A stretch of 64,000 nucleotides of DNA, from positions 94,501 through 158,500 of IMG/VR virus record IMGVR_UViG_3300046000_008568; one strand, 5' to 3'. The translations under genes and the position numbers were made by a program. The notes under the pieces were generated by a model, which was not told where the DNA came from, did no database searches, and saw only the letters and a program-made list of their open reading frames with translations. This DNA comes from a virus (taxonomy: Duplodnaviria > Heunggongvirae > Uroviricota > Caudoviricetes). Positions 2,936-27,358 of this stretch are shown here, in pieces (the first letter of the stretch is position 1; every line of letters starts with the position of its first letter).

Positions 2936-2936
2936 A

Positions 2937-3368
2937 ATGGAAGATAATTTAGTAAAATGTGCTCATTGCGATGCAGAAATGTGTTATGAATATCATAATC
3001 CTCAATTTATACAATGGATGTGTTTTAACTGTGGTTACGGAAGTACTTCACATATGGTTAAGGATAGTGACTTTGTAAAATCATCTAAAGAAATATTACC
3101 TGAATTAATTAAAGATTTAGAATTTATTGATGATGCTGGATTTGTTTGGTATCCTAGTACAATTAATGTACCTGAAAAAGGAATACTATTCCCTAATGGA
3201 ACAAGCAAAGATACATGGGGGTGGTCAGTAGCACCATTAACATTAATTAAAGATGAGGAAAAGGCTAAATTCCCTAAAAATCAAACGCATAAAGTTGATC
3301 TAGCAGGTATAGAATACTTTCCAAAAGAATCATATGCATCGGCCGTTACAAGATTAAACGCATTGTAA
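2937..3368 (+). CDS. hypothetical protein with N-terminal CxxC...CxxC zinc-ribbon
   Basis: 143 aa; CAHCDAEMC...CFNCGYG. Confidence 0.4.
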   Translation: MEDNLVKCAHCDAEMCYEYHNPQFIQWMCFNCGYGSTSHMVKDSDFVKSSKEILPELIKDLEFIDDAGFVWYPSTINVPEKGILFPNGTSKDTWGWSVAPLTLIKDEEKAKFPKNQTHKVDLAGIEYFPKESYASAVTRLNAL

Positions 3369-3371
3369 AAT

Positions 3372-4603: not shown

Positions 4604-4605
4604 CT

Positions 4606-6496: not shown

Positions 6497-6497
6497 T

Positions 6498-8085: not shown

Positions 8086-8151
8086 TATACTGCTATATAA
8101 AATTTGGATAATTAAAAAATAATCATTATATTTAAAAATAAAATAAAATAA

Positions 8152-9315: not shown

Positions 9316-9316
9316 T

Positions 9317-10192: not shown

Positions 10193-10193
10193 T

Positions 10194-11159
10194 ATGAAAA
10201 CAGCGTTAATAACAGGAATAAACGGAATGGATGGAAGTCATTTAGCTGACTTTTTACTAGAAAAGGGATATACTGTCTACGGATTAGAAAGACGTAGTTC
10301 TAGTGAAAACCGAACAAATATACTACATATACAAGATAAAATTAAATTTATAAAAGGAGACTTAACAGATCAAAATTCTCTTTTAAGAGCCCTAAAAGAA
10401 GCTAACCCCGATGAAGTATATAATCTGGCTGCTCAATCATTTGTGGGAGAAAGCTGGAACACCCCAGAACAAACTAGTGATGTAACAGGATTAGGAGTGT
10501 TAAGAATGTTAGAAGCCATTCGTGAATATGGCTCGGATAAAATTAAATTTTACCAAGCATCATCCTCAGAAATGTTTGGACGTATGGTTGAAAACCCAGC
10601 AACAGAAAATACACCATTTTACCCTCGTTCGCCTTATGGTGTAGCTAAATTATATGGACATTGGATAACTAAAAATTATAGAGAATCTTATGATATGTTT
10701 ACTTGTTCTGGTATACTATTTAACCATGAATCAGAACGACGTGGTTTAGAATTTGTAACTAGAAAAATAACTAATGGTGTAGCTAAAATTCATTTAGGAT
10801 TAGCAAATCATATTTCATTGGGTAATTTAGATGCAAAACGTGATTGGGGTTATGCTCCTGATTATGTTGAAGCGATGTGGTTAATATTACAACAAGATAC
10901 ACCAGATGATTATGTTATTGCTACTAACTGCACTTATTCTATTAGAGACTTCTTAGATGAAGCATTCATAGCAATCGGAATTGCAGATTGGGAACCATAC
11001 ATTCAAATAGATCCTCAATTTATAAGACCAGCAGAAGTAGATGTGTTAAGAGGAAATGCTACTAAAGCATATAAACAATTAGATTGGTCTCCAAAAACAG
11101 ATTTTAAACAAATGGTACATATAATGGTACAAAACGATATAAAATTATTAAGTAAATAA
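10194..11159 (+). CDS. gmd: GDP-mannose 4,6-dehydratase
   Basis: ALITGINGMDGSHLADFLLEKGYTVYG, YNLAAQSFV, SSSEMFG, SPYGVAKLYGHWIT, LFNHESERRG are textbook Gmd/SDR motifs. Confidence 0.8.
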   Translation: MKTALITGINGMDGSHLADFLLEKGYTVYGLERRSSSENRTNILHIQDKIKFIKGDLTDQNSLLRALKEANPDEVYNLAAQSFVGESWNTPEQTSDVTGLGVLRMLEAIREYGSDKIKFYQASSSEMFGRMVENPATENTPFYPRSPYGVAKLYGHWITKNYRESYDMFTCSGILFNHESERRGLEFVTRKITNGVAKIHLGLANHISLGNLDAKRDWGYAPDYVEAMWLILQQDTPDDYVIATNCTYSIRDFLDEAFIAIGIADWEPYIQIDPQFIRPAEVDVLRGNATKAYKQLDWSPKTDFKQMVHIMVQNDIKLLSK

Positions 11160-11160
11160 A

Positions 11161-11730
11161 ATGGCTCATAAAGAACAAATTGATTACGTTAACAAAATAA
11201 AAAATCAATTTCCTCAATTTTTTACCAATAAAAAAGTGTTAGGTATAGGTACCTTTAATGTATGTGGTACTGAAGATGAATATTTTGAAAATTGTGACTA
11301 TCAAGGATTAGATTTAGGACCAGGACCAGGAGTTAATATTGTTTGTCCCGCTCAAGAGTATGATGCTCCTGATAATACATTTGACATAATTATTTCATGT
11401 GAATGTTTTGAACACAATCCATTTTATAAAAAAACCATACAAAATGCTGTTAGAATGTTAAAACCAAATGGTATGTTTCTATTCACTTGTGCTACTACAG
11501 GAAGACCAGTTCATGGAATTAAATCATTAGAAGAAGAAAGTAAAAAGAAATTTACTAATTGGAAAACAATGCCCAATGTAGTTAAAGAAAACTGGGATAA
11601 TGAGTACTATAAAAATTTAACTGAAGAAGATATTAGAGAATGTCTTGATTTTGATAAAGAATTTCTTTTATATAAATTTGAAGTTGAACCTAACCATTGC
11701 GATTTATTTTTCTGGGGAATTAAAAAATAA
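11161..11730 (+). CDS. class I SAM-dependent methyltransferase
   Basis: VLGIGTFNVCG glycine-rich motif I, LKPNGMFLF post-II motif. Confidence 0.5.
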   Translation: MAHKEQIDYVNKIKNQFPQFFTNKKVLGIGTFNVCGTEDEYFENCDYQGLDLGPGPGVNIVCPAQEYDAPDNTFDIIISCECFEHNPFYKKTIQNAVRMLKPNGMFLFTCATTGRPVHGIKSLEEESKKKFTNWKTMPNVVKENWDNEYYKNLTEEDIRECLDFDKEFLLYKFEVEPNHCDLFFWGIKK

Positions 11731-11733
11731 TTT

Positions 11734-12774
11734 ATGATATCACTAATAATACCTGCTACAACATCTAATTCGAATTATAATACTAATATAGTTCGTAATA
11801 TTAGAGATTTATATCCAAATGAGAATGAAGTTGAAATTATCCTAGAAATAAATGACGAAGTTAGTTTAGGTATCAATTACAACAATGCCGTTGCTCGCGC
11901 TAATGGTGAGAAAATAATATTATTACATAATGATATGGTTCTACCTAAAGGTTTTATAGAAACCATGGATAAACATATAAGTAAACGCGTAATAACGACG
12001 TATACTCGCATAGAACCTCCTATTTATATGGACACATATCCTGGTAAGATTATTAAAGATTGTGGCTCGGATTTAGGTACATTTGATGAAAGATTATTTA
12101 GTCAACTTCAATTTGAAGAAAGTCTAGTAGATGGTGGTTCACAATTATTCTTTGGGTGTATGAAAGAAGATTACATTGGAATAGATGGATATACATTTAC
12201 TAAATTTTGTGAGGATGATGATTTACATTTAAGATACAAATTAGCAGGTTTTGAACATAAAGTATCATCAGCACATGTGTATCATTTTGTAAGCAAAACA
12301 TCTCGTGTGGGTGACTACCAGAGTATTGAAATGAAATCAAATAAAAATTTTATACGTAAATGGGGGTCTAGAACTCCTAGTGTAAAATATAACATTGCTT
12401 ATATTGTTCATAATTGCCAATTACAGGCTTTAGAAACATTAGAATTATTTTGTGATAGAATATATGTTAATGAGAAATTTGAAATTGGTAGAATGTGGGA
12501 TTATGTTGAATTAGAACAAGAAAATACGTCGTTTGATTTATCTAAACGAGTATTAACTATAAAAAATAATGATCCAATATTAGAAAATGATATTGTAGTT
12601 GAGTTTGATCTTTTAAAATTTAATCCTGAATCTTTTAATATTTTACAACAGTTGCCTAACATAATTAAAGAAAGTGGTGAGATTGGTACATTTGAATTAG
12701 ATATATTTACAATTACTATTAATTCAATGACTGAATACCAAAATGATCTAATATTTATATCAAAACAACAATAA
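11734..12774 (+). CDS. glycosyltransferase family 2-like
   Basis: 346 aa; MISLIIPATT N-term, DDDL motif. Confidence 0.4.
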   Translation: MISLIIPATTSNSNYNTNIVRNIRDLYPNENEVEIILEINDEVSLGINYNNAVARANGEKIILLHNDMVLPKGFIETMDKHISKRVITTYTRIEPPIYMDTYPGKIIKDCGSDLGTFDERLFSQLQFEESLVDGGSQLFFGCMKEDYIGIDGYTFTKFCEDDDLHLRYKLAGFEHKVSSAHVYHFVSKTSRVGDYQSIEMKSNKNFIRKWGSRTPSVKYNIAYIVHNCQLQALETLELFCDRIYVNEKFEIGRMWDYVELEQENTSFDLSKRVLTIKNNDPILENDIVVEFDLLKFNPESFNILQQLPNIIKESGEIGTFELDIFTITINSMTEYQNDLIFISKQQ

Positions 12775-13201: not shown

Positions 13202-13630
13202 ATGGAAAACCAAGATCCACTAAAAAAGCTTCAAGATCAAATGAAAAATTTGATTGGATCGGATAGCACTGTTAAACGTCGTAAAAAAACTAAAGAAGAT
13301 ACTCAACGAGAATTATTTTTAACTAATATACCTTTATTAGAACATATTCTTGCTAGAGGTGTCATGTTGGATAGTGATTATGGTTTTAATACTATTAAAT
13401 ACGACGAACCTTTTTATCAGATTATTGATAGTTTAATTTATATGCATTTTGATGAAGATGCTGCTGAATTGATCATGTTCTATCTATACGAACGAATAAA
13501 CCCAGATGGAACACTTAATACTGTTACTGATATAAATGGGGATGAATTTCTTTTGGAGAACGCAGAAGATCTATGGTCATTTGTACAACAAATAACAGAA
13601 GAAAATAAAGCCGACGATGCCAGCGCCTAA
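13202..13630 (+). CDS. hypothetical protein
   Basis: 142 aa ORF. Confidence 0.4.
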   Translation: MENQDPLKKLQDQMKNLIGSDSTVKRRKKTKEDTQRELFLTNIPLLEHILARGVMLDSDYGFNTIKYDEPFYQIIDSLIYMHFDEDAAELIMFYLYERINPDGTLNTVTDINGDEFLLENAEDLWSFVQQITEENKADDASA

Positions 13631-14273
13631 ACCATTAAGTAAAGAAGATATATTACGAGCAATGCGGTTTACAAAATCAAATCGCGCTGCCGCTCGATAT
13701 TTAAGTGTATCTTATCAGCATTATAAACCTTGGGCTAAACAATATAAAATAAACGATGGTGATATAGAAGCATTAACTCTATTTGATCTTCATAAAAATC
13801 AGTGCGGTAAAGGTATTCCTAAATTTTTACCTAATAGACGAAAAGATCCTAATGTTAAAGATATAATTGAAACAGGAACAGGATGGGAATCATTTACACC
13901 TGAGAAAATTAAATCTAGATTAATAGCTGAGGCATATTTAAAAGATGAGTGTTATCAATGCGGGTTTAATGAACGTAGAGTAACAGATTATAAAACACCA
14001 TTACTACTCCATTTTAAAGATGGAAATAAATGCAATTATTTATTAGATAATTTAGATTTACAATGCTACAATTGTTACTTTCTATATGTTGCCGATCCAT
14101 TAACACCAGACCAGATCAGACATATCGAAGACAATACAGAAGTAAAAGCAACAGCATATGAATGGGATTTAACCCCAGAACAAATATCGGCCATGAAAGA
14201 ATCGGGTTTATGGGATGATAATAAAGCTGATGAAGACGAACCCGGATCAGAATTTATATCTTATATAAAGTAA
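13617..14273 (+). CDS. hypothetical protein with C-terminal Cys/His cluster
   Basis: 218 aa; CYQCG...H...CNYL...CYNC resembles a zinc-binding or HNH-like module. Confidence 0.4.
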   Translation: MPAPKPLSKEDILRAMRFTKSNRAAARYLSVSYQHYKPWAKQYKINDGDIEALTLFDLHKNQCGKGIPKFLPNRRKDPNVKDIIETGTGWESFTPEKIKSRLIAEAYLKDECYQCGFNERRVTDYKTPLLLHFKDGNKCNYLLDNLDLQCYNCYFLYVADPLTPDQIRHIEDNTEVKATAYEWDLTPEQISAMKESGLWDDNKADEDEPGSEFISYIK

Positions 14274-16599: not shown

Positions 16600-16683
16600 G
16601 GAAGGCATCCGGCAGGATCAGGAGCTGCTCTTGAAAAGCAGTAGCGGGTTAAACCGTTGTGAGTTCGAGTCTCACGCCTTCTT
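16600..16683 (+). tRNA. tRNA-Ser (anticodon TGA), class II
   Basis: Acceptor GGAAGGC/GCCTTCT; anticodon stem CTGCT/AGCAG with loop CTTGAAA; long variable arm; T-arm GTGAG-TTCGAGT-CTCAC. Confidence 0.6.
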
Positions 16684-16689
16684 CAATAT

Positions 16690-16761
16690 TGGTCTATGGT
16701 ATAACGGTTATTACACTTGACTTTGACTCAAGCAATCGTGGTTCGATTCCACGTAGACCAA
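16690..16761 (+). tRNA. tRNA-Gln (TTG)
   Basis: Acceptor TGGTCTA/TAGACCA; anticodon stem CTTGA/TCAAG with loop CTTTGAC; T-arm CGTGG-TTCGATT-CCACG. Confidence 0.6.
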
Positions 16762-16771
16762 CAAATAATTT

Positions 16772-16847
16772 CTGGATGTAGAGGAGCCCGGTTTATCTCG
16801 CTGGCCTTGGACGCTAGAGCACGCAGGTTCGAATCCTGCCATCCAGA
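16772..16847 (+). tRNA. tRNA-Pro (TGG)
   Basis: Acceptor CTGGATG/CATCCAG; anticodon stem CTGGC/GCTAG with loop CTTGGAC; T-arm GCAGG-TTCGAAT-CCTGC. Confidence 0.55.
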
Positions 16848-17048
16848 CTATAGACTGTTACTAATTCATAGATCACTGCCTAATAAGCACCGACGCATAG
16901 AATTAGATTTTGCCCTTTAGGCTTTAAAGTGAAGCACGATACTTTTAATATCGGGAAGTAGGAGCATTACCTACAAGGGGTACAAATTAGACTGTTAAGG
17001 TAGGACGTCAGTCAAAGAGAGGTGAGCCATACCTAAACCTCTTACCAG

Positions 17049-17119
17049 CCCCACATGGCGTAATGGTAGCGTGATTGTTTTACATGCAATAGGCGGTGGT
17101 TCGATTCCACCTGAGGGGA
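17049..17119 (+). tRNA. tRNA-Val (TAC)
   Basis: T-arm GGTGG-TTCGATT-CCACC; anticodon stem ATTGT/GCAAT with loop TTTACAT; acceptor has one mismatch. Confidence 0.5.
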
Positions 17120-17167
17120 CAATCAAGTGGTTATCACTAAACAATGGATTAAAAAGGAAGTGAATAA

Positions 17168-17238
17168 GGGGACAACAGGCAAGGTGCCGAGCAGCTCTGT
17201 AAAAGCTCACTGGGTAGGTTCGATTCCTACTGGCCCCA
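17168..17238 (+). tRNA. tRNA-Tyr (GTA), class-I-like
   Basis: T-arm GTAGG-TTCGATT-CCTAC; anticodon loop CTGTAAA; acceptor GGGGACA/TGGCCCC with one mismatch. Confidence 0.45.
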
Positions 17239-17301
17239 CAAAGTATGGAATAACATCGCTCCCGTAATGCCATGGCTCGTATACGAGTGACGGGAGACAA
17301 T

Positions 17302-17374
17302 GGACCTTTTGTATAGCTGGTGCGTACGCTAGTCTGAAGAACTAGAGGAGTAGGTTCGATTCCTACAGGGTCCA
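17302..17374 (+). tRNA. tRNA-Phe (GAA)
   Basis: Acceptor GGACCTT/AGGGTCC; anticodon stem CTAGT/ACTAG with loop CTGAAGA; T-arm GTAGG-TTCGATT-CCTAC. Confidence 0.65.
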
Positions 17375-17382
17375 CAATAAAT

Positions 17383-17457
17383 TGGTCTGAAGCTTAAGAG
17401 GTATATAGCGGAGGTTTGTTAAACCTAGGATAGCAGGTTCGAGTCCTGTCAGACCAG
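17383..17457 (+). tRNA. tRNA-Asn (GTT)
   Basis: Acceptor TGGTCTG/CAGACCA; anticodon loop TTGTTAA; T-arm GCAGG-TTCGAGT-CCTGT. Confidence 0.55.
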
Positions 17458-17464
17458 CAAAAAT

Positions 17465-17538
17465 AGGTAATTAGCTCAATTGGTTAGAGCACTCGCCTGA
17501 TACGTGAGAGGTTATAGGTTCGATTCCTATATTACCTA
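17465..17538 (+). tRNA. tRNA-Ile (GAT)
   Basis: Acceptor AGGTAAT/ATTACCT; D-arm GCTC..GAGC; anticodon stem CTCGC/GTGAG with loop CTGATAC; T-arm ATAGG-TTCGATT-CCTAT. Confidence 0.65.
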
Positions 17539-17544
17539 CAAAAT

Positions 17545-17629
17545 GGAAAGTAAATCAACATGGTGTTGAGTCCGCCTGCTAAGCGAGGCGTTCGGGTAAC
17601 CGGATTCAGTTCGATTCTGATTCTTTCCT
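17545..17629 (+). tRNA. tRNA-Ser-like (GCT), class II, imperfect
   Basis: 85 nt; anticodon loop CTGCTAA; long variable arm; T-loop TTCGATT; mismatches in the acceptor and T stems. Confidence 0.35.
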
Positions 17630-17920
17630 CTTTAAAAACCTGGTCCCTGTCCTCATAACGTGTTTAAGGAACACAGGAGTTGAATGTGCAATCGGGGCGG
17701 ATAGTGGTGGGACACTGATAAATAAAATCTTAAGCACAAAGATAAGTTAACGGGTTCTTATCAAACTACCGACTTGATCTAGGATCGAGAATATTTCATA
17801 AGTATTCCCAGACAAGAGCGTAACTTGTAGTCGGTACAATATGGTGTTCGAAGCTTTTTAGTGAAGCGCAAGACTGTGAATCTTGAGAAGATGGGGCGGT
17901 ACCGTTCTTACACCCAAAAT

Positions 17921-17994
17921 GCCCCTATGGTGAAACTGGTAAACACAACGGTTTTAAGCGCCGTAAGCTGTAGGTTCGAGTCCTACTGGGGGCA
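17921..17994 (+). tRNA. tRNA with anticodon TAA (Leu codon UUA) but a short variable arm
   Basis: Acceptor GCCCCTA/TGGGGGC; anticodon stem ACGGT/GCCGT with loop TTTAAGC; variable arm AAGCT (5 nt); T-arm GTAGG-TTCGAGT-CCTAC. Confidence 0.5.
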
Positions 17995-17999
17995 CAACT

Positions 18000-18071
18000 G
18001 GTCTTATAGTTTAATTGGAAAAACTTATCGCTACGAACGATAGAACGTAGGTTCGACTCCTACTAAGACCT
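18000..18071 (+). tRNA. tRNA-Arg (ACG)
   Basis: Acceptor GGTCTTA/TAAGACC; D-arm GTTT..AAAC; anticodon stem TATCG/CGATA with loop CTACGAA; T-arm GTAGG-TTCGACT-CCTAC. Confidence 0.65.
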
Positions 18072-18231
18072 CAAAATATAATTACAAAGCGTAGGTAAGA
18101 AGACGTGGAGAGACGTTGCGCAAGGGTACACACTAAGGATAAGTATTTATACTCAACTCTCTAATGGTGTGTGAAGCACTAAGAAATTAGAACCCAGATT
18201 CCTGATAAAACTTACTAATTATATTTTACTT

Positions 18232-18303
18232 GCCCGTATAGTTTAATTGGAAGAACTAAACGCTTCTAACGTTTCAGTCCTGGTTCAAGTCCAGGTATGG
18301 GTT
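18232..18303 (+). tRNA. tRNA-Arg (TCT)
   Basis: Anticodon stem AAACG/CGTTT with loop CTTCTAA; T-arm CCTGG-TTCAAGT-CCAGG; acceptor has two G-U pairs. Confidence 0.55.
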
Positions 18304-18310
18304 CAAAAAT

Positions 18311-18381
18311 GCGGGTCACAGACAAGGTGTCGGTACGGTCTCCAAAACTGCTACGGGTAAGTTCGATTCTTACGGCCTGCG
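18311..18381 (+). tRNA. tRNA-Trp-like (CCA), atypical D-arm
   Basis: Acceptor GCGGGTC/GGCCTGC with G-U pairs; T-arm GTAAG-TTCGATT-CTTAC; anticodon loop CTCCAAA; D-arm is irregular. Confidence 0.4.
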
Positions 18382-18447
18382 CAAAATTATTAATTATGAA
18401 AAAGAAATTCGATATGCATTAAGTTTATTAACTTAAAATGCATAAAA

Positions 18448-18630
18448 ATGAGAATCAAAAATCATACTCAGAAAGAGTATAAAAAAGAAAAAAGAAAACA
18501 ATCCAAAGATGGTGGAATGTGGTTTGAAGACTATTGGAGTAAATGTAAATCCGGAATATGGGCCTTCAAGTACAGAGAATACAGAACCTGGAAGTATAAC
18601 AGAAAAACACAATACAAACCTTTAAAATAA
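18448..18630 (+). CDS. small basic protein
   Basis: 60 aa, Lys/Arg/Tyr/Trp-rich; sits between the tRNA sub-arrays. Confidence 0.3.
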   Translation: MRIKNHTQKEYKKEKRKQSKDGGMWFEDYWSKCKSGIWAFKYREYRTWKYNRKTQYKPLK

Positions 18631-18636
18631 GTTATC

Positions 18637-19143
18637 ATGAGTAAGTACCAAAGAACACTGGTAATTGATTCAAGCTTTATGGCAAGATCCATTATCTCTA
18701 CCGAAAGAGCTTTCGTGATTTCGTATAAGGGTAATGCAGAAGTTATAGCTGAACATCCAGAAACATTCGGATTAGTAAATCCAAAACTAGAAATTTTTAA
18801 ACCTTCAATCATTAGGGTTTACAAATACGTAAAACAAAACATTCAAAAAGTTCCTCTAACAAGAGAGAATGTTTATCGAAGAGATAACTATGAATGTGTT
18901 TATTGTGGATCAAGTTATTTAAAATCACTAACTTTAGATCACGTTATTCCACAATCAAAAGGTGGAGCAAATGCTTGGGATAATTTAGTAACAGCATGTA
19001 GAAGTTGCAATTCACAAAAAGCAGATTTAACACTGGAGGAATATGGTAAAGAAATAGTAGAACCAAAAAGACCTCATTACTTAATGCTTATGAAACAACT
19101 AACATATGTTCCAAAAGAATGGGAAACATTTTTATTCTTTTAA
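18637..19143 (+). CDS. HNH homing-type endonuclease
   Basis: 168 aa; CVYCGSSY...LDHVIPQSKGG...WDNLVTACRSCNSQK is the classic HNH C-x2-C / H-N-H / C-x2-C pattern. Confidence 0.7.
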   Translation: MSKYQRTLVIDSSFMARSIISTERAFVISYKGNAEVIAEHPETFGLVNPKLEIFKPSIIRVYKYVKQNIQKVPLTRENVYRRDNYECVYCGSSYLKSLTLDHVIPQSKGGANAWDNLVTACRSCNSQKADLTLEEYGKEIVEPKRPHYLMLMKQLTYVPKEWETFLFF

Positions 19144-19190
19144 TTGGTTATTAAAAATATTGTTCGTATATTTAAGTATAATAAAGAGAT

Positions 19191-19376
19191 ATGAAAACCG
19201 AACAACAAATTAGAGAAAAGTACGAAGAGATGCTAAAGCATACAGAAGACTTGGATGATATGGTTCAAAACCCAAGTAAATATAGTGGTATTAATATTGA
19301 CAATATTCAAGATCATATAAAAGTAAGGGAAGAACAATATAAAATGAATACTCTGATTGAGTGGATTTTAAAATAA
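19191..19376 (+). CDS. hypothetical protein
   Basis: 61 aa ORF. Confidence 0.3.
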   Translation: MKTEQQIREKYEEMLKHTEDLDDMVQNPSKYSGINIDNIQDHIKVREEQYKMNTLIEWILK

Positions 19377-19453
19377 TAAATCACCTACTACATAACACGG
19401 CGCCAAATTAATTGTGACATGTACTGTCTGGAAGGTCAGGCTAGGTGATAAAT

Positions 19454-19523
19454 GGGCAGGATGGTTATGGAGACCGGCGGGATTGCAAACTCCGCAGAGT
19501 AAGTTCGATTCTTACCTTGCCCT
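19454..19523 (+). tRNA. tRNA-Cys (GCA)
   Basis: Acceptor GGGCAGG/CTTGCCC; anticodon loop TTGCAAA identical to canonical Cys; T-arm GTAAG-TTCGATT-CTTAC. Confidence 0.55.
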
Positions 19524-19618
19524 CATTTAAGGTTCGACCTTCTACCAAATGTGTTACACCCACAGATGGACATCGAGAGGGAGCTACCGATTGATAAGTG
19601 ACCGCACATGCGGTAAAT

Positions 19619-19692
19619 GCCCGAGTAGCCGAATTGGTATAGGCGCTAGACTTAGGATCTAGATTTTGCGAGTTCGAGTCTCGCCTTGGGTA
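19619..19692 (+). tRNA. tRNA with anticodon TAG (Leu codon CUA) but a short variable arm
   Basis: Anticodon stem CTAGA/TCTAG with loop CTTAGGA; variable arm ATTTT; T-arm GCGAG-TTCGAGT-CTCGC; acceptor GCCCGAG/CTTGGGT. Confidence 0.5.
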
Positions 19693-19851
19693 CGATAGTA
19701 GGACCGGGTTACCGGATATGGGTTCCTTAATTGGGCAGAAGGATTGGACGCCAAGCGCCTGGCCGCCTACAGATAAAATTAGAGTTAGCTTATAGTAAAG
19801 CAGCAGGGGCTAACCTGCAGAACGGATACGAAAACCGACTCTAATTTACTT

Positions 19852-19925
19852 GCTCTCGACGCACAAATGGTGGTGCACCGGATTTGTAACCCGGAATAGA
19901 GCCAGTTCGATCCTGGCCGAGAGCT
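19852..19925 (+). tRNA. tRNA-Thr (TGT)
   Basis: Acceptor GCTCTCG/CGAGAGC; D-arm GCAC..GTGC; anticodon loop TTTGTAA; T-arm GCCAG-TTCGATC-CTGGC. Confidence 0.6.
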
Positions 19926-19933
19926 CAATAATT

Positions 19934-20006
19934 GCGAATGTCGTATAACGGCTAATTATTCTTGACTTCCAATCAAGGGATGAGGGTTCGATTCCCTCCA
20001 TTCGCT
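19934..20006 (+). tRNA. tRNA-Gly (TCC)
   Basis: Acceptor GCGAATG/CATTCGC; anticodon stem CTTGA/TCAAG with loop CTTCCAA; T-arm GAGGG-TTCGATT-CCCTC. Confidence 0.65.
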
Positions 20007-20012
20007 CAAAAT

Positions 20013-20084
20013 GGCCCTATCGTCTATCGGTTAGGACACATGGTTTTCATCCATGAAAGTCGGGTTCGACTCCCGGTGGGGCTA
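20013..20084 (+). tRNA. tRNA-Glu (TTC)
   Basis: Anticodon stem CATGG/CCATG with loop TTTTCAT; T-arm TCGGG-TTCGACT-CCCGG. Confidence 0.6.
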
Positions 20085-20089
20085 CAATT

Positions 20090-20161
20090 GGGGCTATAGT
20101 ATAACGGCTATTACAATGGTTTTGCAAATCATAAATTGGAGTTCGATTCTCCATAGCTCCA
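20090..20161 (+). tRNA. tRNA-Ala (TGC)
   Basis: Acceptor GGGGCTA/TAGCTCC; anticodon stem ATGGT/ATCAT with loop TTTGCAA; T-arm TGGAG-TTCGATT-CTCCA. Confidence 0.6.
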
Positions 20162-20235
20162 CAAAATCGATCATAAGAGGATTGACCTATGAGGCTAATA
20201 GGTAAGTGATTGACAACTTGGAAAGACAGGTAACT

Positions 20236-20310
20236 GGTCCTATCGTTCAACGGCTAGGATGTAAGCTTGTCACGCTTATGATGAGGGTTCGATTCCCTCT
20301 AGGACCGCCA
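20236..20310 (+). tRNA. tRNA-Asp (GTC), with encoded 3' CCA
   Basis: Acceptor GGTCCTA/TAGGACC; anticodon stem TAAGC/GCTTA with loop TTGTCAC; T-arm GAGGG-TTCGATT-CCCTC; discriminator G followed by CCA. Confidence 0.65.
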
Positions 20311-20313
20311 TAT

Positions 20314-20387
20314 TGCGGGTTGGTAGAAGTTGGTATCTCGTGAGCCTCATAAGCTTAAGGTCGGGGGTTCGAGTCCCTCACCCGCTA
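20314..20387 (+). tRNA. tRNA-Met (CAT), with unpaired 1:72
   Basis: Anticodon stem TGAGC/GCTTA with loop CTCATAA; T-arm GGGGG-TTCGAGT-CCCTC; first acceptor base pair is a T-T mismatch. Confidence 0.5.
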
Positions 20388-20394
20388 CTAAATC

Positions 20395-20468
20395 GTCCTT
20401 TTAGCTCAGTTGGTCAGAGCAGCTCGCTCATAACGAGAAGGTCACAGGTTCGAGCCCTGTATAGGACA
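20395..20468 (+). tRNA. tRNA-Met or tRNA-Ile2 (CAT)
   Basis: D-arm GCTC-AGTTGGTCA-GAGC; anticodon loop CTCATAA; T-arm ACAGG-TTCGAGC-CCTGT. Confidence 0.55.
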
Positions 20469-20531
20469 CTAAATTTATTCAATATGAGGTCAATTCCTTC
20501 ATCTCCAATGTAGGTTAGCTATTGCTAACTT

Positions 20532-20848: not shown

Positions 20849-21760
20849 ATGAAAAATTCATTAGCATCAAAAGGGTTATCAATGTCACAAGCAGCATCAA
20901 TCTCTAACTTGTGTAATCAACGTTCAAAAGATATTACAGCACAATTAGCTGATATTAATAACGTTTCTAAAGAATTAGTAATAGGTACCGAAACCTATAT
21001 AGAAACTCAGGCTAATCCAATCCCCTTAAACGTAGTACAATTACTACAAGACAAAGCAAGATTATCTGCTACTCAAGCATTCTTGATGGAGAATATTAAG
21101 GCTAAGGATGAATTAATCAATAAAATCAAATACGAAGGATTCGAATATGATATAGAGGTTCCAATACGCCCTACAATCATCTCAGAAACACTTCCAAGTC
21201 AAGTGGATGAAGATTTTGGTTGGGATACTTTAACCACAGCCGAGTACAATGAATTCATAGAAGCAGAGGCTTATGCTTCACATATTGGACAATTTATCCA
21301 TAAAGGAGGTAAATTAGATAAGTTGAGAGCAGAACTTCCTACCATTAAAACTTTAGAGTTTATGGAAATTGAAGTAGGAAAGAAAACTCCTATGAAAGTA
21401 TCTATTCACCATACACCTGAGCAATTGCTTATAATTCACGAAGAGTTAGCAGCACTTCATAGAGGGTATGAGCAAAAAGTAAATTACTTTAAATCTAAAG
21501 TAAAAAATGCTACTACCTCTGAGAACGCTAGAGTTCAGAAAGAAAGAGGTGAGATCCAAGCAAGAGTAAATCAACAAAATGCAGATCTAGCAAATGCTTA
21601 TAAATTAGCATATGAGCAATGGACGGCTGAGCAACGTAAAGCTCAACACGATTTTGAAGAAAAACGTCAAAATAAAATTCAAGATGCTGTTAATTTAAAA
21701 ATTGAAGTAGCAGAAAGATTCCAAGACGTAGTAAATGAATTCTTGAATCAATTAAAATAA
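20849..21760 (+). CDS. hypothetical protein
   Basis: 303 aa ORF with phage-like composition. Confidence 0.5.
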   Translation: MKNSLASKGLSMSQAASISNLCNQRSKDITAQLADINNVSKELVIGTETYIETQANPIPLNVVQLLQDKARLSATQAFLMENIKAKDELINKIKYEGFEYDIEVPIRPTIISETLPSQVDEDFGWDTLTTAEYNEFIEAEAYASHIGQFIHKGGKLDKLRAELPTIKTLEFMEIEVGKKTPMKVSIHHTPEQLLIIHEELAALHRGYEQKVNYFKSKVKNATTSENARVQKERGEIQARVNQQNADLANAYKLAYEQWTAEQRKAQHDFEEKRQNKIQDAVNLKIEVAERFQDVVNEFLNQLK

Positions 21761-23062: not shown

Positions 23063-23503
23063 TTGGAGAAGACGAAGAAAAAAAAGAAAAAGATGAGCAA
23101 GATTAAAATATACTTAGATGATGTAAGAACACCAGTTGATCCATCTTGGACTGTAGTAAGAAACTACGAACAATTTGTTGATACTGTTACTTATATTAGG
23201 TTGGAAAACATAGATGTAATCTCTTTAGATCACGATTTAGGTGATTCAGCAATGGCTGAATGGCATAAGAATGTTTACCATAATTACGAATTAAATTATG
23301 ATAATATTACAGAGAAGACTGGAATGGATTGCACAAAATGGTTGGTTAATCAATGGTTGGATGGAGCTTGTGTTGTTGATGTTGTAATACATTCGGCAAA
23401 TGCCGTTGGTAGTGCAAATATGATGGGATATATAAACAACTACAGGCATATTCATAGATTACCTCAAAACTGTGTAAGAGTACAAATTGAACATACAGTA
23501 TGA
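23063..23503 (+). CDS. hypothetical protein
   Basis: 146 aa; an alternative ATG at 23093 follows a Lys run. Confidence 0.4.
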   Translation: MEKTKKKKKKMSKIKIYLDDVRTPVDPSWTVVRNYEQFVDTVTYIRLENIDVISLDHDLGDSAMAEWHKNVYHNYELNYDNITEKTGMDCTKWLVNQWLDGACVVDVVIHSANAVGSANMMGYINNYRHIHRLPQNCVRVQIEHTV

Positions 23504-24051
23504 AAGTAATATTTCTAGATAATGACGGAGTAATCTGCCTAGCCAATAATTGGGGTAGTAGATTTAAAAAGCAGACAAAAAGCATAGCTAAAACTGTTGC
23601 TGACAAAGATCTACCTGTTGAACTTCGTTTTGATAACTTTGACCAAAAAGCAATTAAAGTACTAAATCAAATCCTAGAAGAAACAGGAGCAGAAATAGTA
23701 ATATCCTCAGATTGGAGAACATGGGCTACATTAGAGGAATTAGGAGAGTTTTATTTATCACAAGGGATAATAAAAAAACCAATAGCACTTACTCCGTTAT
23801 TGAAAAACTTTGATGATAGTGCTTTTCAATTATTTTGGTATAAAAGGTGGTTGGAGAAAATTAGAATCTTAGAAATCCAAGAATGGTTAGAAAATAATCA
23901 AGTTGATAAATGGGTAGCTATTGATGATTTAAACATGAGTCTACAATTTAATGGAGGTTATGGATTAGAGAATTTTGTTTTAACTCCTCGTTCAACTGAA
24001 GGAATAAAACAGTCAGGAATAAAAGAACAAATACTACAATATTTAGAATAA
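23500..24051 (+). CDS. HAD-superfamily phosphatase (candidate polynucleotide 3'-phosphatase)
   Basis: N-terminal FLDNDGVI matches the HAD motif I DxDG(T/V); ATGA overlap. Confidence 0.4.
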   Translation: MKVIFLDNDGVICLANNWGSRFKKQTKSIAKTVADKDLPVELRFDNFDQKAIKVLNQILEETGAEIVISSDWRTWATLEELGEFYLSQGIIKKPIALTPLLKNFDDSAFQLFWYKRWLEKIRILEIQEWLENNQVDKWVAIDDLNMSLQFNGGYGLENFVLTPRSTEGIKQSGIKEQILQYLE

Positions 24052-24146
24052 AATGAAATATTTTCTAATTTGGGTAGGGTATGAATTTATAAGACCAAAA
24101 TTTATTTGGTTGTGGTATTATTTAATAAAAAAAGGATCAGAATAAA

Positions 24147-24863
24147 GTGAGAATAACAGTATTATCAGACACACATACAAGACATGGATTAATTCCTATG
24201 GAAGATCTACCAGGTGGAGATTTATTACTCCATGCTGGAGATTTAATGAACTCAGGGTATAATAAACATGATATTCATAGTTTCTGTACCTGGTTTCAAT
24301 CATTGAAACAATATGAAGATAAAGTATTCATAGCAGGTAATCACGATCGTTTATTTGAAAATGAACCACATGAAGTAGAAGGATACTTAAAAGATTATCC
24401 GCTAATCGATTACCTTCAAGATGCTGAGTTAGTTTTGTATGGAGATGGTCCAAATGGAGATATGCCTGAAAATAACATTCGCATTTACGGATCACCTTGG
24501 CAACCGGAATTCTATTCTTGGGCATTCAATTTACCAAAAAATGGAATTGAAATAGCAGGTAAGTGGGAAGGTATTCCTAACAACACAGACATTCTTATCA
24601 CACATGGTCCTGCATTTGGAACTTTAGATACAGTAGCAGGAAGACCTTGGGACGGATTAGGATGCGAGTTATTAGCTCAAAGAATTGAAGTCGTAAAACC
24701 AAAAATTCACATCTGTGGTCACATTCATTCAGGATATGGTTATGAGTTTAAAGATGGTACTCACTTCTTCAATGCATCAGTATTGGACGAGGCTTACGAA
24801 TACACTCAAAAACCAATGACGTTTGATTGGGATAAAGAAACAAATACAATAAATTTCATTTAA
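24147..24863 (+). CDS. calcineurin-like metallophosphoesterase
   Basis: GTG start; VLSDTH, GDL, GNHD, ITHGP, CGHIH metal-binding motifs. Confidence 0.6.
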   Translation: MRITVLSDTHTRHGLIPMEDLPGGDLLLHAGDLMNSGYNKHDIHSFCTWFQSLKQYEDKVFIAGNHDRLFENEPHEVEGYLKDYPLIDYLQDAELVLYGDGPNGDMPENNIRIYGSPWQPEFYSWAFNLPKNGIEIAGKWEGIPNNTDILITHGPAFGTLDTVAGRPWDGLGCELLAQRIEVVKPKIHICGHIHSGYGYEFKDGTHFFNASVLDEAYEYTQKPMTFDWDKETNTINFI

Positions 24864-24921
24864 AATTAGGCTTATAAGTATATAGGTTGTAATTTTATAA
24901 AAGATTTAAAAATATAAGGTT

Positions 24922-25572
24922 ATGAGAATTACATTAGAAAAAGGACAAAGATTGTTCTTCACATCAGACACACATTACGCTCACTCAAACATTTGTAGTG
25001 CTACTACAAACTGGTCTGTGAACGATGGATACGCTCGTACATTCAATTCACTTGATCATATGAATGCTACTCTAATTAATAACATTAATTGTATGGTTGG
25101 TGAAGATGATATCTTAATTCACTTAGGAGATTGGTCATTTGGAGGATTTGATAAAGTACAAGAATTTAGAGATAGAATACTTTGTAAAAATATTCACTTG
25201 ATATTTGGAAATCACGATCACCACATTGAAAGAAACAAAGAAGGTATCCAATCATTATTTTCTTCAGTACAAAACTACTTGAGATTAGAAGTAAAAAGAC
25301 CAATCAATAAAGCAACAACTGAAAAGTTTACTTTCGTTTGTATGCACTATCCAATTGCGTCCTGGCATGATATGAACCAAGGAGTAATTCACTTACATGG
25401 TCACGTTCATCTACCACCACATCTAAGATTAGCAGATGGTAAAGCAATGGATGTTGGAGTAGATGGAAACGGTTTAGAGCCTTTATCAATGAATGAGATA
25501 TTATCGATAATGAAAGATCGTCCAATTAAAAAATTAGCCTTACCAAAGGATCACCATGAGCAAAGAATCTAA
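24922..25572 (+). CDS. metallophosphoesterase (second copy)
   Basis: TSDTHYAH, HLGDW, GNHDHH, HGHVH motifs. Confidence 0.55.
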   Translation: MRITLEKGQRLFFTSDTHYAHSNICSATTNWSVNDGYARTFNSLDHMNATLINNINCMVGEDDILIHLGDWSFGGFDKVQEFRDRILCKNIHLIFGNHDHHIERNKEGIQSLFSSVQNYLRLEVKRPINKATTEKFTFVCMHYPIASWHDMNQGVIHLHGHVHLPPHLRLADGKAMDVGVDGNGLEPLSMNEILSIMKDRPIKKLALPKDHHEQRI

Positions 25573-25822
25573 TATAAAATATGGAATAATTTTTACAAGT
25601 GCTTTAATTATAGAGATTTGTTCAACGTTCTATATTCGCTTTACAGCAGAAGCCAATACAATGGGGATGGTATTCTTTGCTTTTATTGGCCCGTTTTTAG
25701 CTTTACCATTTGCAGGTTATATGGTAGAATCTAAATTTTGGAATGAACGTATAAGAATGGCTTTTGCTTTAGCATTAGGTTACGCTCTTGGAGCATTAGT
25801 AGTTAATATTATAAAAATATAA
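25556..25822 (+). CDS. small membrane protein
   Basis: 88 aa with 3 predicted TM helices. Confidence 0.35.
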   Translation: MSKESNIKYGIIFTSALIIEICSTFYIRFTAEANTMGMVFFAFIGPFLALPFAGYMVESKFWNERIRMAFALALGYALGALVVNIIKI

Positions 25823-25825
25823 GAT

Positions 25826-26209
25826 ATGAAAGAGTTATTTTTATTAAGAGGATTACCTGGATCAGGAAAATCAACATTGGCAGAATCATTAGGAAATATG
25901 ACTATAGAAGCAGACCAATATTTTACATATAATGGTAAGTATGAATTTGATGCCTCTAAATTAAAAGATGCACATGCTTGGTGTCAAAATACTGCGAAAG
26001 TTTGGATGACAAATGATGTTAAGAAAATAATAGTATCAAATACATTTACTCAGACTTGGGAAATGGACTACTACTTTGACTTAGCAGAAAAGTACGGATA
26101 CAGAGTTTATTCTTTGATTGTAGAAAATAGACATGGAGGAGTAAATGAGCATGGAGTACCAGAAGAGAAATTAGTACAAATGAAAGATAGATTTGAAATA
26201 AAATTATAA
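25826..26209 (+). CDS. P-loop kinase (polynucleotide 5'-kinase-like)
   Basis: LLRGLPGSGKST Walker A at the N-terminus; 127 aa; sits immediately upstream of the RNA ligase. Confidence 0.5.
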   Translation: MKELFLLRGLPGSGKSTLAESLGNMTIEADQYFTYNGKYEFDASKLKDAHAWCQNTAKVWMTNDVKKIIVSNTFTQTWEMDYYFDLAEKYGYRVYSLIVENRHGGVNEHGVPEEKLVQMKDRFEIKL

Positions 26210-26212
26210 AAA

Positions 26213-27358
26213 ATGGAAAACAATAATTCAGTTTGCTTTATAGCAAAAATAAATGAAGTAAAAGCAATCGAAGGTGCTGATAACATCGAACTTGTAATCG
26301 CAGGTGGATGGAATGCTATCACTAGAAAAGGAGAATTTAAAGTAGGTGATGAGACAATCATTGCAACTACTGATGCAGTTATACCAGAAAAACTTTCTGA
26401 AGAAATGGGAGTTACTTCTTACCTAAGAAAAGGAGGTAGAGTAAGAACTGTAAAACTAAGAGGAGTTTATTCTGAATGTTTAATCATTCCAATGAAATAC
26501 CTTAGTGGTAAAACCACTATGGGTGACTTTGATTTGAAAGAAGGAAGCGACTGTATGGAGTTCTTAGGAATTATCAAATACGAACCACCAGTTAAACAAA
26601 TTCAACTTGCTTCAGGTAGAAAGATTAAATGGAGAGACAATCAGAACTTCCATATCTATTACAAATTCCCAAACCTTAAAAACGTTGAAGGAATGTTTAC
26701 ACCAGAAGATACAGTAGAGATTTCTCGTAAGATTCATGGTACAAATGCTAGATACGGTATTGTAAAAAAATCTAAATTGTCATTCTGGGATAAAGTAAAA
26801 AAATTCTTTAGACTAGCTGATAAGTGGATTGACTATGAATACATTTACGGTTCACATAATTGTGAGAAAGGATCTGACTCTCAAGGATTTTATTCTGAAG
26901 ATGTTTGGAAAACAATAGCTGAGAAGTATGATATTAAAGCTAAGCTTTGGGATGAAGTTAAAAATGGAGTAGCTAGTCTTGTAGATATTGGAAGTGGATT
27001 TGTAATCTATGGAGAAATTTATGGAGCAGGTATTCAAAAGAACTATGACTATGGATTAGATGATATTAGATTTATAGGATTTGATACAACTATTAGAGGT
27101 GCTTACAACTCACCAGCTGGTACTTTCGGTACATTTCATTCACTAGACTTACCTTATATTGAAGTACTTTATTTTGGACTTTGGAATCAAGAAGTACAGG
27201 ATAGGTTTACATTTAACAACTTCATTGAAGGAACAAAAGTACCACATGAAGGAATTGTAATTAAACATTCATCAGGTGATAGAAAGAAAGTAGCAAAGGT
27301 AATCAATCCCGACTATTTGATCTACGGAGAGAAGAATGATGTAGGAGATTCACATTAA
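26213..27358 (+). CDS. Rnl2-family RNA ligase
   Basis: RKIHGTN (motif I, cf. T4 Rnl2 EKIHGTN), IYGEIYGAGIQKNYDY (cf. T4 VFGEFAGPGIQKNVDY), EGIVIK, KVINPDY. Confidence 0.75.
   Translation: MENNNSVCFIAKINEVKAIEGADNIELVIAGGWNAITRKGEFKVGDETIIATTDAVIPEKLSEEMGVTSYLRKGGRVRTVKLRGVYSECLIIPMKYLSGKTTMGDFDLKEGSDCMEFLGIIKYEPPVKQIQLASGRKIKWRDNQNFHIYYKFPNLKNVEGMFTPEDTVEISRKIHGTNARYGIVKKSKLSFWDKVKKFFRLADKWIDYEYIYGSHNCEKGSDSQGFYSEDVWKTIAEKYDIKAKLWDEVKNGVASLVDIGSGFVIYGEIYGAGIQKNYDYGLDDIRFIGFDTTIRGAYNSPAGTFGTFHSLDLPYIEVLYFGLWNQEVQDRFTFNNFIEGTKVPHEGIVIKHSSGDRKKVAKVINPDYLIYGEKNDVGDSH

Follow-up and report, generated by a model that had tools for sequence, protein, structure and literature searches.

Reviews hold that leucine transfer RNA (tRNA-Leu) is long-armed everywhere except in animal mitochondria, (PMC9976931) where it is of class I, lacks the long arm, and is recognized via A73 and A14. 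(PMC9976931) The closest bacterial case is the type I tRNA-Leu(CAA) of Streptomyces coelicolor, which has a 5-nucleotide (nt) variable loop, coexists with type II tRNA-Leu and a single leucyl-tRNA synthetase (LeuRS), and is leucylated. (PMC6614811) Here, we describe two tRNA genes with leucine anticodons and 5-nt variable arms, Leu(UAA) at 17921..17994 (+) and Leu(UAG) at 19619..19692 (+), that lie in a tRNA array of the Caudoviricetes record IMGVR_UViG_3300046000_008568 from IMG/VR. All coordinates refer to the window, the 64,000-nt stretch that was analyzed (positions 94,501 to 158,500 of the record). The window and its relatives contradict the reviewed picture, and the explanation we prefer, with a probability of roughly 0.82, is that the array carries true tRNA-Leu genes with a trimmed extra arm and that these decode leucine codons.

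The S. coelicolor gene is chromosomal, has a CAA anticodon, and is served by a LeuRS that ignores A73 and needs a particular leucine-specific domain, (PMC6614811) whereas the window genes are phage-borne, carry UAA and UAG anticodons, conserve A73, and have relatives in which intermediates of arm loss are visible. Animal mitochondrial tRNA-Leu has degenerate elbows and a dedicated LeuRS, while the Leu tRNAs of the window keep the canonical elbow formed by G18G19 and the T loop. Among isolated phages, a BLAST search with the window Leu(UAG) returns full-length matches annotated as tRNA-Leu of 76–78 nt in Gordonia, Streptomyces, and T5-like Vibrio phages, and ARAGORN identifies the matched genes as class-I-shaped Leu(UAG) and Leu(UAA). 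The genes of vB_ValS_X1 (T5-like Vibrio phage), Fryberger (Gordonia), Wofford (Streptomyces), and phi4:1 (Cellulophaga) resemble those of the window in length (74–78 nt), short variable loop, Leu-type D arm, A73, UAG and UAA anticodons, and location within phage tRNA clusters; they differ in belonging to other lineages and hosts, with ~79–84% identity to the window genes. Our literature searches found no publication on class-I tRNA-Leu architecture in phages. The architecture is thus already in databases, with one experimental precedent, and appears to have gone unremarked in phages.

For comparison, we use 80 IMG/VR loci that were recovered with the protein of an open reading frame (ORF) adjoining the array (20849-21760) and that share 47–89% identity with it. 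These related loci fall within the labels L001–L082, L002 being Flavobacterium phage vB_FspM_immuto, while L083–L303 denote loci fetched by sequence pattern. Most related loci that span the region contain a syntenic tRNA array. The same protein has no homologues among 50,697 phage records.

The two genes had been described, in an original prediction made from the sequence alone, as 74-nt tRNAs with Leu anticodons and 5-nt variable arms, and both ARAGORN and the Rfam tRNA model RF00005 bear out the coordinates, registers, and architecture. ARAGORN calls both as Leu (taa at 17921-17995 and tag at 19619-19693), and Rfam agrees on the register of UAA and UAG. RF00005 matches both genes end to end, at 64.9 bits for UAA and 63.7 bits for UAG (gathering score, 29 bits), which are among the best scores in the array. 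In the ARAGORN drawings, each has a 7-base-pair (bp) acceptor stem, 5-bp anticodon and T stems, and a 7-nt anticodon loop with U33. Leu(UAA) has the variable loop AAGCU, A73, A15/U48, and a 3-bp D stem with A13.A22, while Leu(UAG) has AUUUU, G1.U72, A73, A15/U48, and a 3-bp D stem with G13.A22. Because the variable loops are 5 nt long, rather than arms of at least 10 nt with a stem, we do not class these genes as class II; with a Leu anticodon, a cloverleaf, and a variable loop within 4–5 nt, they have the form of type I tRNA-Leu. The identity set of an E. coli-type LeuRS (A73, U8:A14, A15:U48, the placement of G18G19, and U54:A58) is complete in both. Both are genuine class-I-shaped tRNAs with Leu anticodons, neither register artefacts nor obvious pseudogenes.

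The anticodon loop of Leu(UAA) reads UUUAAGC (U32, G37, C38), a variant common to L004–L008, L012, L014, and L050, whereas many relatives have the usual CUUAAAA. Modification of the N6-isopentenyladenosine (i6A) type is typical of UUR-reading tRNAs, and G37 would preclude it in Leu(UAA).

Selection acts on the short Leu tRNAs as tRNAs. The window, its related loci, and further viral contigs supplied 61 non-redundant class-I Leu(UAR) sequences; when these are aligned, standard pairs make up 99.2% of cells, and both partners have changed in 18 of the 19 pairs tested. The covariation score of 0.853, as compared to 0.233 for shuffled alignments, is reached by none of 500 shuffles, and slid controls have only 35–49% of cells paired. 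Positions U8, A14, A15, G18, G19, U48, U54, U55, C56, and A58 are invariant. If the two genes were instead decaying, or were tRNA-like RNAs without a role in translation, the phage would rely on host tRNA-Leu. Such a state has precedents, as phage tRNA arrays do hold pseudogenes (two are annotated in phi4:1), and the neighboring His, Tyr, and CAU tRNAs have mismatches and low covariance-model scores. The Leu genes, however, score among the best in the array, their stems are perfect or wobble-paired, and this pairing is upheld with compensatory change across the 61 diverse sequences. An identical gene is also found in the distant relatives L045 and L046, and the two genes are the sole phage-encoded decoders of Leu, which makes up 8.9% of codons. 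We therefore regard decay as very improbable and retain the reading of functional tRNAs.

The related loci record the arm at several lengths. Among their unique genes, the variable region of Leu(UAA) is 5 nt in 7, 11 nt in 10, and 16–17 nt in 13, while that of Leu(UAG) is 5–7 nt in 26 and 11–13 nt in 2. The Leu(UAA) of the window and that of L050, which has an 11-nt region, are identical in their anticodon and T arms, and with the variable region and anticodon masked, the body of the window gene is 85% identical to that of L050 as compared to 74% for the best non-Leu tRNA. Similarly, the Leu(UAG) genes of L007 (5 nt) and L008 (11 nt) have the acceptor, D, and T arms in common. In phi4:1, a Leu(UAA) with an 11-nt arm sits beside a class-I Leu(UAG), and the former is almost the same as the window gene in its acceptor and D arm. 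All Leu genes compared have the D arm of bacterial tRNA-Leu (GUGGUGRAAYUGGUARACAC-like, with a 3-bp stem and a 13:22 mismatch), G1.U72 is frequent among them, and the D stem of the window Leu(UAG) shows compensatory changes. Of the 60 Leu genes of related loci, 59 have A73 and 59 have A15:U48. By these comparisons, the short Leu tRNAs are homologous to class II tRNA-Leu, with the missing extra arm as essentially the sole difference, and its deletion was probably stepwise, from 16–17 nt to an 11-nt mini-hairpin and then to a loop of 5–7 nt.

Several observations weigh against this interpretation. A73 is invariant in the alignment of 61 sequences partly by construction, the set having been pre-filtered on A73, and conservation of the D arm in L083–L303 is forced by the search pattern. 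A15:U48 is not specific to Leu, being also the commonest state in the Ala, Arg, Gln, Gly, and Ile tRNAs of these arrays; we rejected it as a Leu-specific mark and treat it as compatible rather than diagnostic. Whole-body identity to the nearest neighbor, considered as proof of Leu ancestry, works for Leu(UAA) (85/74%) and fails for Leu(UAG), which is 74% identical to class II Leu tRNAs and 73% to other isotypes. Since body identity is uninformative for Leu(UAG), we rely there on the D-arm signature, synteny, and the 11-nt intermediate.

The near-equal body identities of Leu(UAG) are what one would expect if a class I tRNA of another isotype had gained a Leu anticodon by mutation, such that the resemblance to Leu was confined to the anticodon. 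However, both genes have the Leu-type D arm with its 13:22 mismatch, as well as G1.U72 and A73, the changes in the D stem of the UAG copy are compensatory, and intermediates with 11-nt variable regions occur on the same body. Both genes also sit in syntenic Leu slots of related arrays, and for Leu(UAA), the best non-Leu body falls well short of the Leu match. An anticodon shift is thus highly unlikely, and descent from class II tRNA-Leu is the better account of both genes.

As a separate observation, the window Leu(UAG) is identical to genes at 9423-9497 of L045 and 8315-8389 of L046, in which the flanking protein is only 61–62% identical and the array order differs. This identity despite diverged flanks suggests that single tRNA genes are exchanged between arrays.

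Bacterial tRNA-Tyr is normally class II, and the Tyr tRNA of the window has been trimmed in the same way as its Leu tRNAs. The Tyr(GUA) gene at 17165..17235 (+) is class-I-shaped, with a 5-nt variable loop (ACUGG), a 3-bp D stem with the 5-nt loop AAGGU, A5.G68, G1-C72, and A73. RF00005 matches it at 17168-17238 with 27.1 bits; we fixed its register by the T arm and by what ARAGORN calls for the orthologues in L007, L012, L014, and L050. These four loci have the armless form in common with the window, and pairs 7:66 and 30:40 as well as the D stem show compensatory changes. Among unique genes of the related loci, the variable region of Tyr(GUA) is 5 nt in 3 and 10–15 nt in 23, while the regions of Ser(UGA) and Ser(GCU) measure 15–21 nt with one low-threshold exception. 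If true, an armless bacterial-type tRNA-Tyr would mean that the extra arm of Tyr has been lost independently for a third time.

We next consider the meaning of the codons that the two Leu tRNAs would read. TTA makes up 5.4% of all codons and 60% of those for Leu, and only with TTA and CTA read as Leu do the phage proteins have a normal Leu content (8.9% of residues). In the aminotransferase gene 8152-9315, Leu is the majority residue at 27 of 30 TTA sites and at 7 of 7 CTA sites across 105 homologues (~80% identity or less, translated with the standard code). A caution is that these homologues may include related phages that share the decoding of this phage, and we therefore also compared the crystallized E. 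coli ColD (PDB 2gms, 31% identity), the only fully independent sequence. Over 26 aligned sites, TTA corresponds to Leu (9), Ile (5), Phe (3), and Val (2), against a background of 8.5% Leu and 32% Leu, Ile, Val, Met, and Phe combined, and Leu is the commonest partner of TTA. At the level of sequence, the codon alignments, the ColD comparison, and the normal Leu content show TTA and CTA to mean Leu in this phage, and they point indirectly to such decoding in vivo.

It had been proposed that the two tRNAs might receive an amino acid other than Leu, which would leave UUA and CUA reassigned or ambiguous. In principle, loss of the class-defining arm could alter synthetase recognition, and E. coli LeuRS does not accept the natural type I tRNA-Leu of S. 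coelicolor. (PMC6614811) Against this proposal, the residues aligned with TTA and CTA in homologues, ColD included, are Leu or similar to Leu, and a codon as frequent as TTA could not be reassigned while keeping a normal Leu content. The anticodons read UUR and CUN rather than stop codons, as a suppressor would, and apart from the arm the tRNAs are near-identical to class II tRNA-Leu, with A73 and the Leu D arm retained. Recoding is not supported, because both codons align with Leu in homologues, and we consider it very unlikely. Under the favored reading, the two tRNAs would read UUR and CUN as Leu, together 8.9% of phage codons.

How the tRNAs are leucylated is a related question, as the original prediction had named non-canonical recognition by LeuRS as one of two possibilities. 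For E. coli Leu identity, A73 is crucial, while the anticodon and the long arm are not; A15-U48, G18G19, A20a, and D/T-loop contacts matter, and armless minimal tRNA-Leu variants stay active. (PMC9976931) The window genes have every one of these elements, and to this extent no special recognition is called for, the E. coli set being complete without the long arm. The prediction holds in another respect, and here too the evidence is adverse to our reading: S. coelicolor LeuRS charges its natural type I tRNA-Leu(CAA), but E. coli LeuRS and one other Streptomyces LeuRS fail to do so. (PMC6614811) Charging by an arbitrary bacterial LeuRS is therefore not to be assumed and would depend on the host enzyme. 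Leucylation by the host enzyme is plausible on this basis; both expression and charging are predicted, with host LeuRS most likely charging both tRNAs with leucine.

Armless tRNA-Leu is common in phage and mobile tRNA arrays. A strict pattern search, in which a UAR anticodon had to occur with the Leu-type D arm and a short variable region, matches at least 120 viral contigs, and among the matches listed, 118 of 120 are Leu genes of ≤78 nt by ARAGORN. In 185,579 species-representative genomes, the same search finds 101 stretches, of which 89 are confirmed and 60 carry at least five tRNA genes; the taxa include many Sorangium, Chryseobacterium, Saccharibacteria, and Acidobacteriota. In the other arrays with class-I Leu (n = 221), Ser is ≥82 nt in 171 of 174 cases and Tyr is long in 75 of 80, and none of these 80 Tyr genes is armless; thus, armless Tyr is much rarer than armless Leu. 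The family as a whole amounts to a natural experiment on what each synthetase requires of the class II architecture: the arm is dropped in Leu and Tyr and not in Ser, and it can be seen to shrink stepwise on a constant body.

Class-I-shaped Leu genes are also seen in cellular assemblies, including Sorangium chromosomes (L088, L111, L112, L116, L118, and others) and Chryseobacterium/Epilithonimonas (L092, L101, L146, L156). They occur mostly in dense arrays of 10–33 tRNA genes per 8 kilobases (kb), which may be prophage-borne or chromosomal and in some of which all Leu anticodons are on short forms.

Two causes of the arm loss are weighed here. The variable arm is the main identity element for seryl-tRNA synthetase (SerRS), (PMC9976931) and retention of the Ser arm alongside loss of the Leu and Tyr arms fits this requirement. 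We lean toward relaxed constraint as the cause, the arm being dispensable for LeuRS and tyrosyl-tRNA synthetase (TyrRS). A possible but less probable cause is adaptive: the armless Leu and Tyr tRNAs, together with the rewired Lys, His, and CAU tRNAs described below, may be nuclease-proof replacements that sustain translation when host defenses cut class II variable arms or other parts of tRNAs. This idea complements our explanation of the array and rivals only the reading of neutral loss. Retron-Eco7 and Septu PtuAB cut the host tRNA-Tyr variable loop at C48/A49, and T5 tRNA-Tyr resists via its distinctive variable loop. (PMC13096335) T5 tRNA-Tyr is likewise of a class II isotype with an altered variable region; it keeps its arm and its resistance to these systems is demonstrated, (PMC13096335) whereas the Tyr and Leu tRNAs of the window are armless and their resistance is a prediction. 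Phage tRNAs also escape anticodon nucleases through loop mutations, (PMC10264068) and the anticodon loop of Leu(UAA) is atypical. Arm length switches between relatives as close as L007 and L008. The array is under no obvious size pressure, with conserved spacers of 60–160 nt and an HNH gene, which makes streamlining a weak driver. Weighing against adaptive loss, class-I Leu tRNAs are also found in putatively chromosomal tRNA arrays such as those of Sorangium, and the computed results do not separate selection from drift. Moreover, we know of no bacterial nuclease that targets the tRNA-Leu variable arm.

An RNA-repair module 2.6 kb downstream of the array would fit such a conflict. The module spans 23063..27358 (+), with matches to PF20274, PF18143, PF00149, PF09414, and PF21189 in Pfam and to PHROGs. 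It comprises cREC_REC (PF20274; 23063-23503), HAD_SAK_2 (PF18143; 23500-24051), two Metallophos ORFs encoding calcineurin-like phosphoesterases (24147-24863 and 24922-25572), and an RNA ligase with a PHA02142 OB domain (26213-27358; Pfam and PHROGs), all on the + strand. Its presence suggests that the phage expects its host to cleave RNA or tRNA.

The array as a whole consists of 25 tRNA genes for all 20 amino acids, densely packed on one strand within 3.9 kb (16600-20468, +). It was correctly recognized as an array in the original prediction, which placed the count at about 22; lowered ARAGORN thresholds, lax Rfam filters, and synteny bring it to 25. ARAGORN at default settings reports 18 genes on the + strand (16600-20469), and RF00005 adds Asn (17383-17457) at 51.8 bits. 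Sub-threshold matches to tRNA-Sec, a related model, reveal Ser(GCU) (17545-17628) and Trp (18310-18381). With lax filters, for which short stretches were searched, RF00005 yields Lys(UUU) at 36.6, Tyr(GUA) at 27.1, and His(GUG) at 25.9 bits, and ARAGORN at a lowered threshold (-ps90) recovers Lys and a third CAU tRNA (17768-17837). Each of these additional tRNAs occupies the syntenic slot of the same isotype in related arrays. Lys and His had been reported as missing, which reflects difficulty of detection and not absence, as their D and T loops are non-canonical. Default detectors overlook five to seven of the 25 genes and would give the false impression of a phage without Lys, His, and Tyr tRNAs. 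In contrast, the reported lack of a canonical Leu tRNA stands, as default ARAGORN finds no class II tRNA-Leu in the 64-kb window. The mismatched stems noted in several tRNAs are likewise real in Tyr (A5.G68), His (5:68 and 6:67), and Ser(GCU) (7:66).

All genes are on the + strand and, unless otherwise stated, are detected by both ARAGORN and RF00005. The first block begins with Ser(UGA) (16600..16683; class II with the long variable arm retained; ARAGORN, and the tRNA-Sec model of the same clan at 36.8 bits), Gln(UUG) (16690..16761; 64.8 bits), Pro(UGG) (16772..16847; 55.4 bits), Lys(UUU) with a non-canonical core (16912..16982; ARAGORN -ps90 and lax RF00005), and Val(UAC) (17049..17119). After Tyr, it continues with Phe(GAA) (17302..17374), Asn(GUU) (17383..17457; RF00005 and ARAGORN -ps90), Ile(GAU) (17465..17538; 72.4 bits), Ser(GCU) (17545..17629; class II with the long variable arm retained; tRNA-Sec model at 35.2 bits and ARAGORN -ps90), the third CAU tRNA (17768..17836; Met or Ile2 type; ARAGORN -ps90 only), and His(GUG) with an encoded G-1 and C73 (17843..17914; RF00005 at 17844-17914). 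Leu(UAA) is followed by Arg(ACG) (18000..18071), Arg(UCU) (18232..18303), and Trp(CCA) (18310..18381; tRNA-Sec model at 30 bits and orthologues), which has a short D arm (AGAC-AAGGU-GUCG) as in Tyr and orthologues in L007, L018, L027, L030, and L034–L036. Three ORFs come next, one of them encoding an HNH endonuclease of 168 amino acids (18637..19143, +; phrog_16726, E-value 2.8e-32) that is flanked by two ORFs of ~60 amino acids. The second block consists of Cys(GCA) (19454..19523; 33.6 bits), Leu(UAG), Thr(UGU) (19852..19925), Gly(UCC) (19934..20006), Glu(UUC) (20013..20084), Ala(UGC) (20090..20161), Asp(GUC) (20236..20307), and two Met-type CAU tRNAs (20314..20387 and 20395..20468). The anticodons, with U34 or G34 throughout and ACG for Arg, come close to a minimal complete decoding set, as expected from wobble rules, and match the AT-rich codon usage of the phage.

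In its density, single strand, free-standing endonuclease gene, and non-tRNA structured RNAs, the array resembles the tRNA cluster of T4/T6-type phages, in which the homing endonuclease SegB and tRNA-Tyr are found. (PMC13096335) It differs in that its endonuclease is HNH rather than GIY-YIG, it has 25 tRNAs rather than 8, and its spacer RNAs are without Rfam similarity. The gap between Trp and Cys that holds the HNH ORF differs in length among relatives, and a second HNH-like ORF (13617-14273) lies upstream of the array.

The canonical tRNA elbow is built from G18:Psi55 (Psi, pseudouridine), G19:C56, and T54:A58. The G18:Psi55 contact is near-universal in tRNAs, and three tRNAs of the array depart from it. 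Lys(UUU) has A8, U14, the D loop UAAAGUG (A18 G19), and the T loop AGCAUUA (A54 G55 C56 .. U58), a form that recurs in many related loci with compensatory stem changes. His(GUG) has A8, U14, the D loop UUUAGUG, the T loop GGCGGUA, and mismatches at 5:68 and 6:67, and its form is also found in L018, L020–L022, L034, and L039. The third CAU tRNA has the D arm GAUC-UAG-GAUC with a 3-nt D loop, UAG (A18 G19), and the T loop AGCGUAA (A54 G55 .. U58); it has no Rfam match (17768-17836) and is kept at its syntenic site with compensatory changes in the T and anticodon stems. None of the three combines a D-loop GG with UUC at 54–56. G19:C56 is kept in all, position 18:55 is A:G, and Lys and His additionally swap U8:A14 for A8:U14.

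Among 663 unique well-paired tRNAs from the window and L001–L082, A54 G55 .. U58 occurs in 26 and A54 U55 .. U58 in 25. A D loop without GG is present in 22 of 27 tRNAs with G55 as compared to 12 of 631 with U55 (Fisher p 6e-28, uncorrected for relatedness). Orthologous pairs from at least seven isotypes differ by G18 to A18 and, jointly, U55 to G55, with G19:C56 unchanged; in other arrays, AG instead of GG is also seen alongside U54 G55 C56. The A18:G55 elbow thus appears to be an undescribed, recurrent, and isotype-independent alternative to G18:Psi55, which, if true, would constitute a new rule of tRNA tertiary structure. Our literature search found nothing on A18/G55 tRNAs, and BLAST of the Lys tRNA against isolated phages gave one partial match only. 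Across the related loci, tRNAs with an A18:G55-type elbow are seen from L004 to L060.

The spacers between the tRNA genes contain conserved structured elements, all on the + strand. Element C (17636..17765) has nhmmer matches in 33 loci, and its 5′ end pairs with the loop of its 3′ hairpin; in 20 unique copies, 99% of cells are paired and 5 pairs show compensatory change, and Rfam gives no match at E ≤ 10. Element D (18088..18222; matches in 16–17 loci at up to 96% identity) is enclosed by a long stem (18073-18230) and has 27 predicted pairs, 10 with compensatory change, a variable hairpin inserted in L007, and no credible Rfam match. The spacer 19697..19848, which has no Rfam match, consists of a four-way junction (domain A, 19697-19775; 5 pairs with compensatory change) and a three-hairpin domain (domain B, 19778-19848), the latter with matches in 51 loci and, in 27 unique copies, 99% paired cells and 8 compensatory pairs. 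Over these four units (17636-17765, 18088-18222, 19697-19775, and 19778-19848), 98–99% of cells are paired, 5–10 pairs per unit are compensatory, and peripheral hairpins vary.

A fourth element of 95 nt (19525..19618) is found in 29 loci at 92–97% identity. A stem P1 (CCCUCU/AGAGGG) surrounds a hairpin with the loop UUACACC and is followed by a 3′ hairpin (ACCGC/GCGGU); the RNAalifold consensus has 21 pairs, 3 of them compensatory. The element is more conserved than the adjoining tRNAs, has no Rfam match, and always stops a few nt upstream of a tRNA gene, which is Leu(UAG) in the window and tRNA-Ser in immuto (L002 4001-4093, 91% identity), a phage that is distant in other respects. Two identities were considered for it and set aside. 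A hammerhead (CUGAUAAG...AAA) is rejected by eye, as the core G8 is A and there is no GAAA, and a permuted tRNA or transfer-messenger RNA (GGUUCGA...CCCUCU-ACCA with a downstream AGAGGG) has no G3:U70 and a CCA that is paired in the consensus fold.

The tRNA spacers, which also include 16848-16911, 16983-17048, 17241-17301, and 20162-20235, have a G+C content of 0.34–0.48 as compared to 0.32 for the genome and are sporadic in related arrays, yet at high identity. Rfam offers only sub-threshold chance matches for them (snR40 at 22 bits, YrlA at 21 bits, and Plastid-ycf2 antisense to tRNAs). The T4 tRNA cluster co-encodes small stable RNAs, species 1 and 2, and the spacers of the window are candidates for new structured RNAs comparable to these.

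Together, the elbow tRNAs, the spacer RNAs, and the repair module hint at a conflict with tRNA-cleaving host defenses. More speculatively, the array may be part of a "hardened" translation island, a full tRNA set rewired at the features seen by host tRNA-targeting defenses or modification enzymes, although we think this unlikely on the whole. The altered parts would be the armless Leu and Tyr tRNAs, the A18:G55 elbow with or without A54:U58 in Lys, His, and CAU, and the changed anticodon loop of Leu(UAA), an assignment that we regard as doubtful. That the island further includes the uncharacterized structured spacer RNAs and is followed by an RNA heal-and-seal module is similarly tentative. 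If the conflict is real, these tRNAs would serve directly as probes for defense nucleases aimed at class II arms or at the tRNA elbow.

The array belongs to an uncultivated myovirus. The window has a G+C content of 32%, and by PHROGs, its proteins include a baseplate wedge protein, sugar-modifying enzymes, RNA ligase, and HNH endonucleases. By baseplate protein, the closest isolate is Flavobacterium phage vB_FspM_immuto at 42% identity, and because of this match, the host is probably a member of Bacteroidota. At the nucleotide level, matches to isolated phages are restricted to tRNAs and one spacer, chiefly in Cellulophaga phi4:1-like phages and immuto. Pfam and PHROGs give no match for ORF 20849-21760 or for most large structural ORFs, and a scan for sigma-70 promoters finds 6 sites as compared to 12 expected.

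Outside the array, a solitary tRNA-like gene (35129-35197, +) lies in an intergenic gap, matches RF00005 at 38.9 bits, and has the anticodon CGA for a Ser codon. Its acceptor and T arms are perfect, and it has a 3-nt variable loop, U73, and two anticodon-stem mismatches; from these features, it is not expected to be a SerRS substrate. The aminotransferase encoded at 8152-9315, a DegT-family enzyme resembling cytidine diphosphate (CDP)-6-deoxy-hexulose dehydrase, is 78–80% identical to proteins on contigs of up to 321 kb. It sits within a block of sugar-modification genes (198-12774) that looks like a recently acquired, host-like gene cluster.

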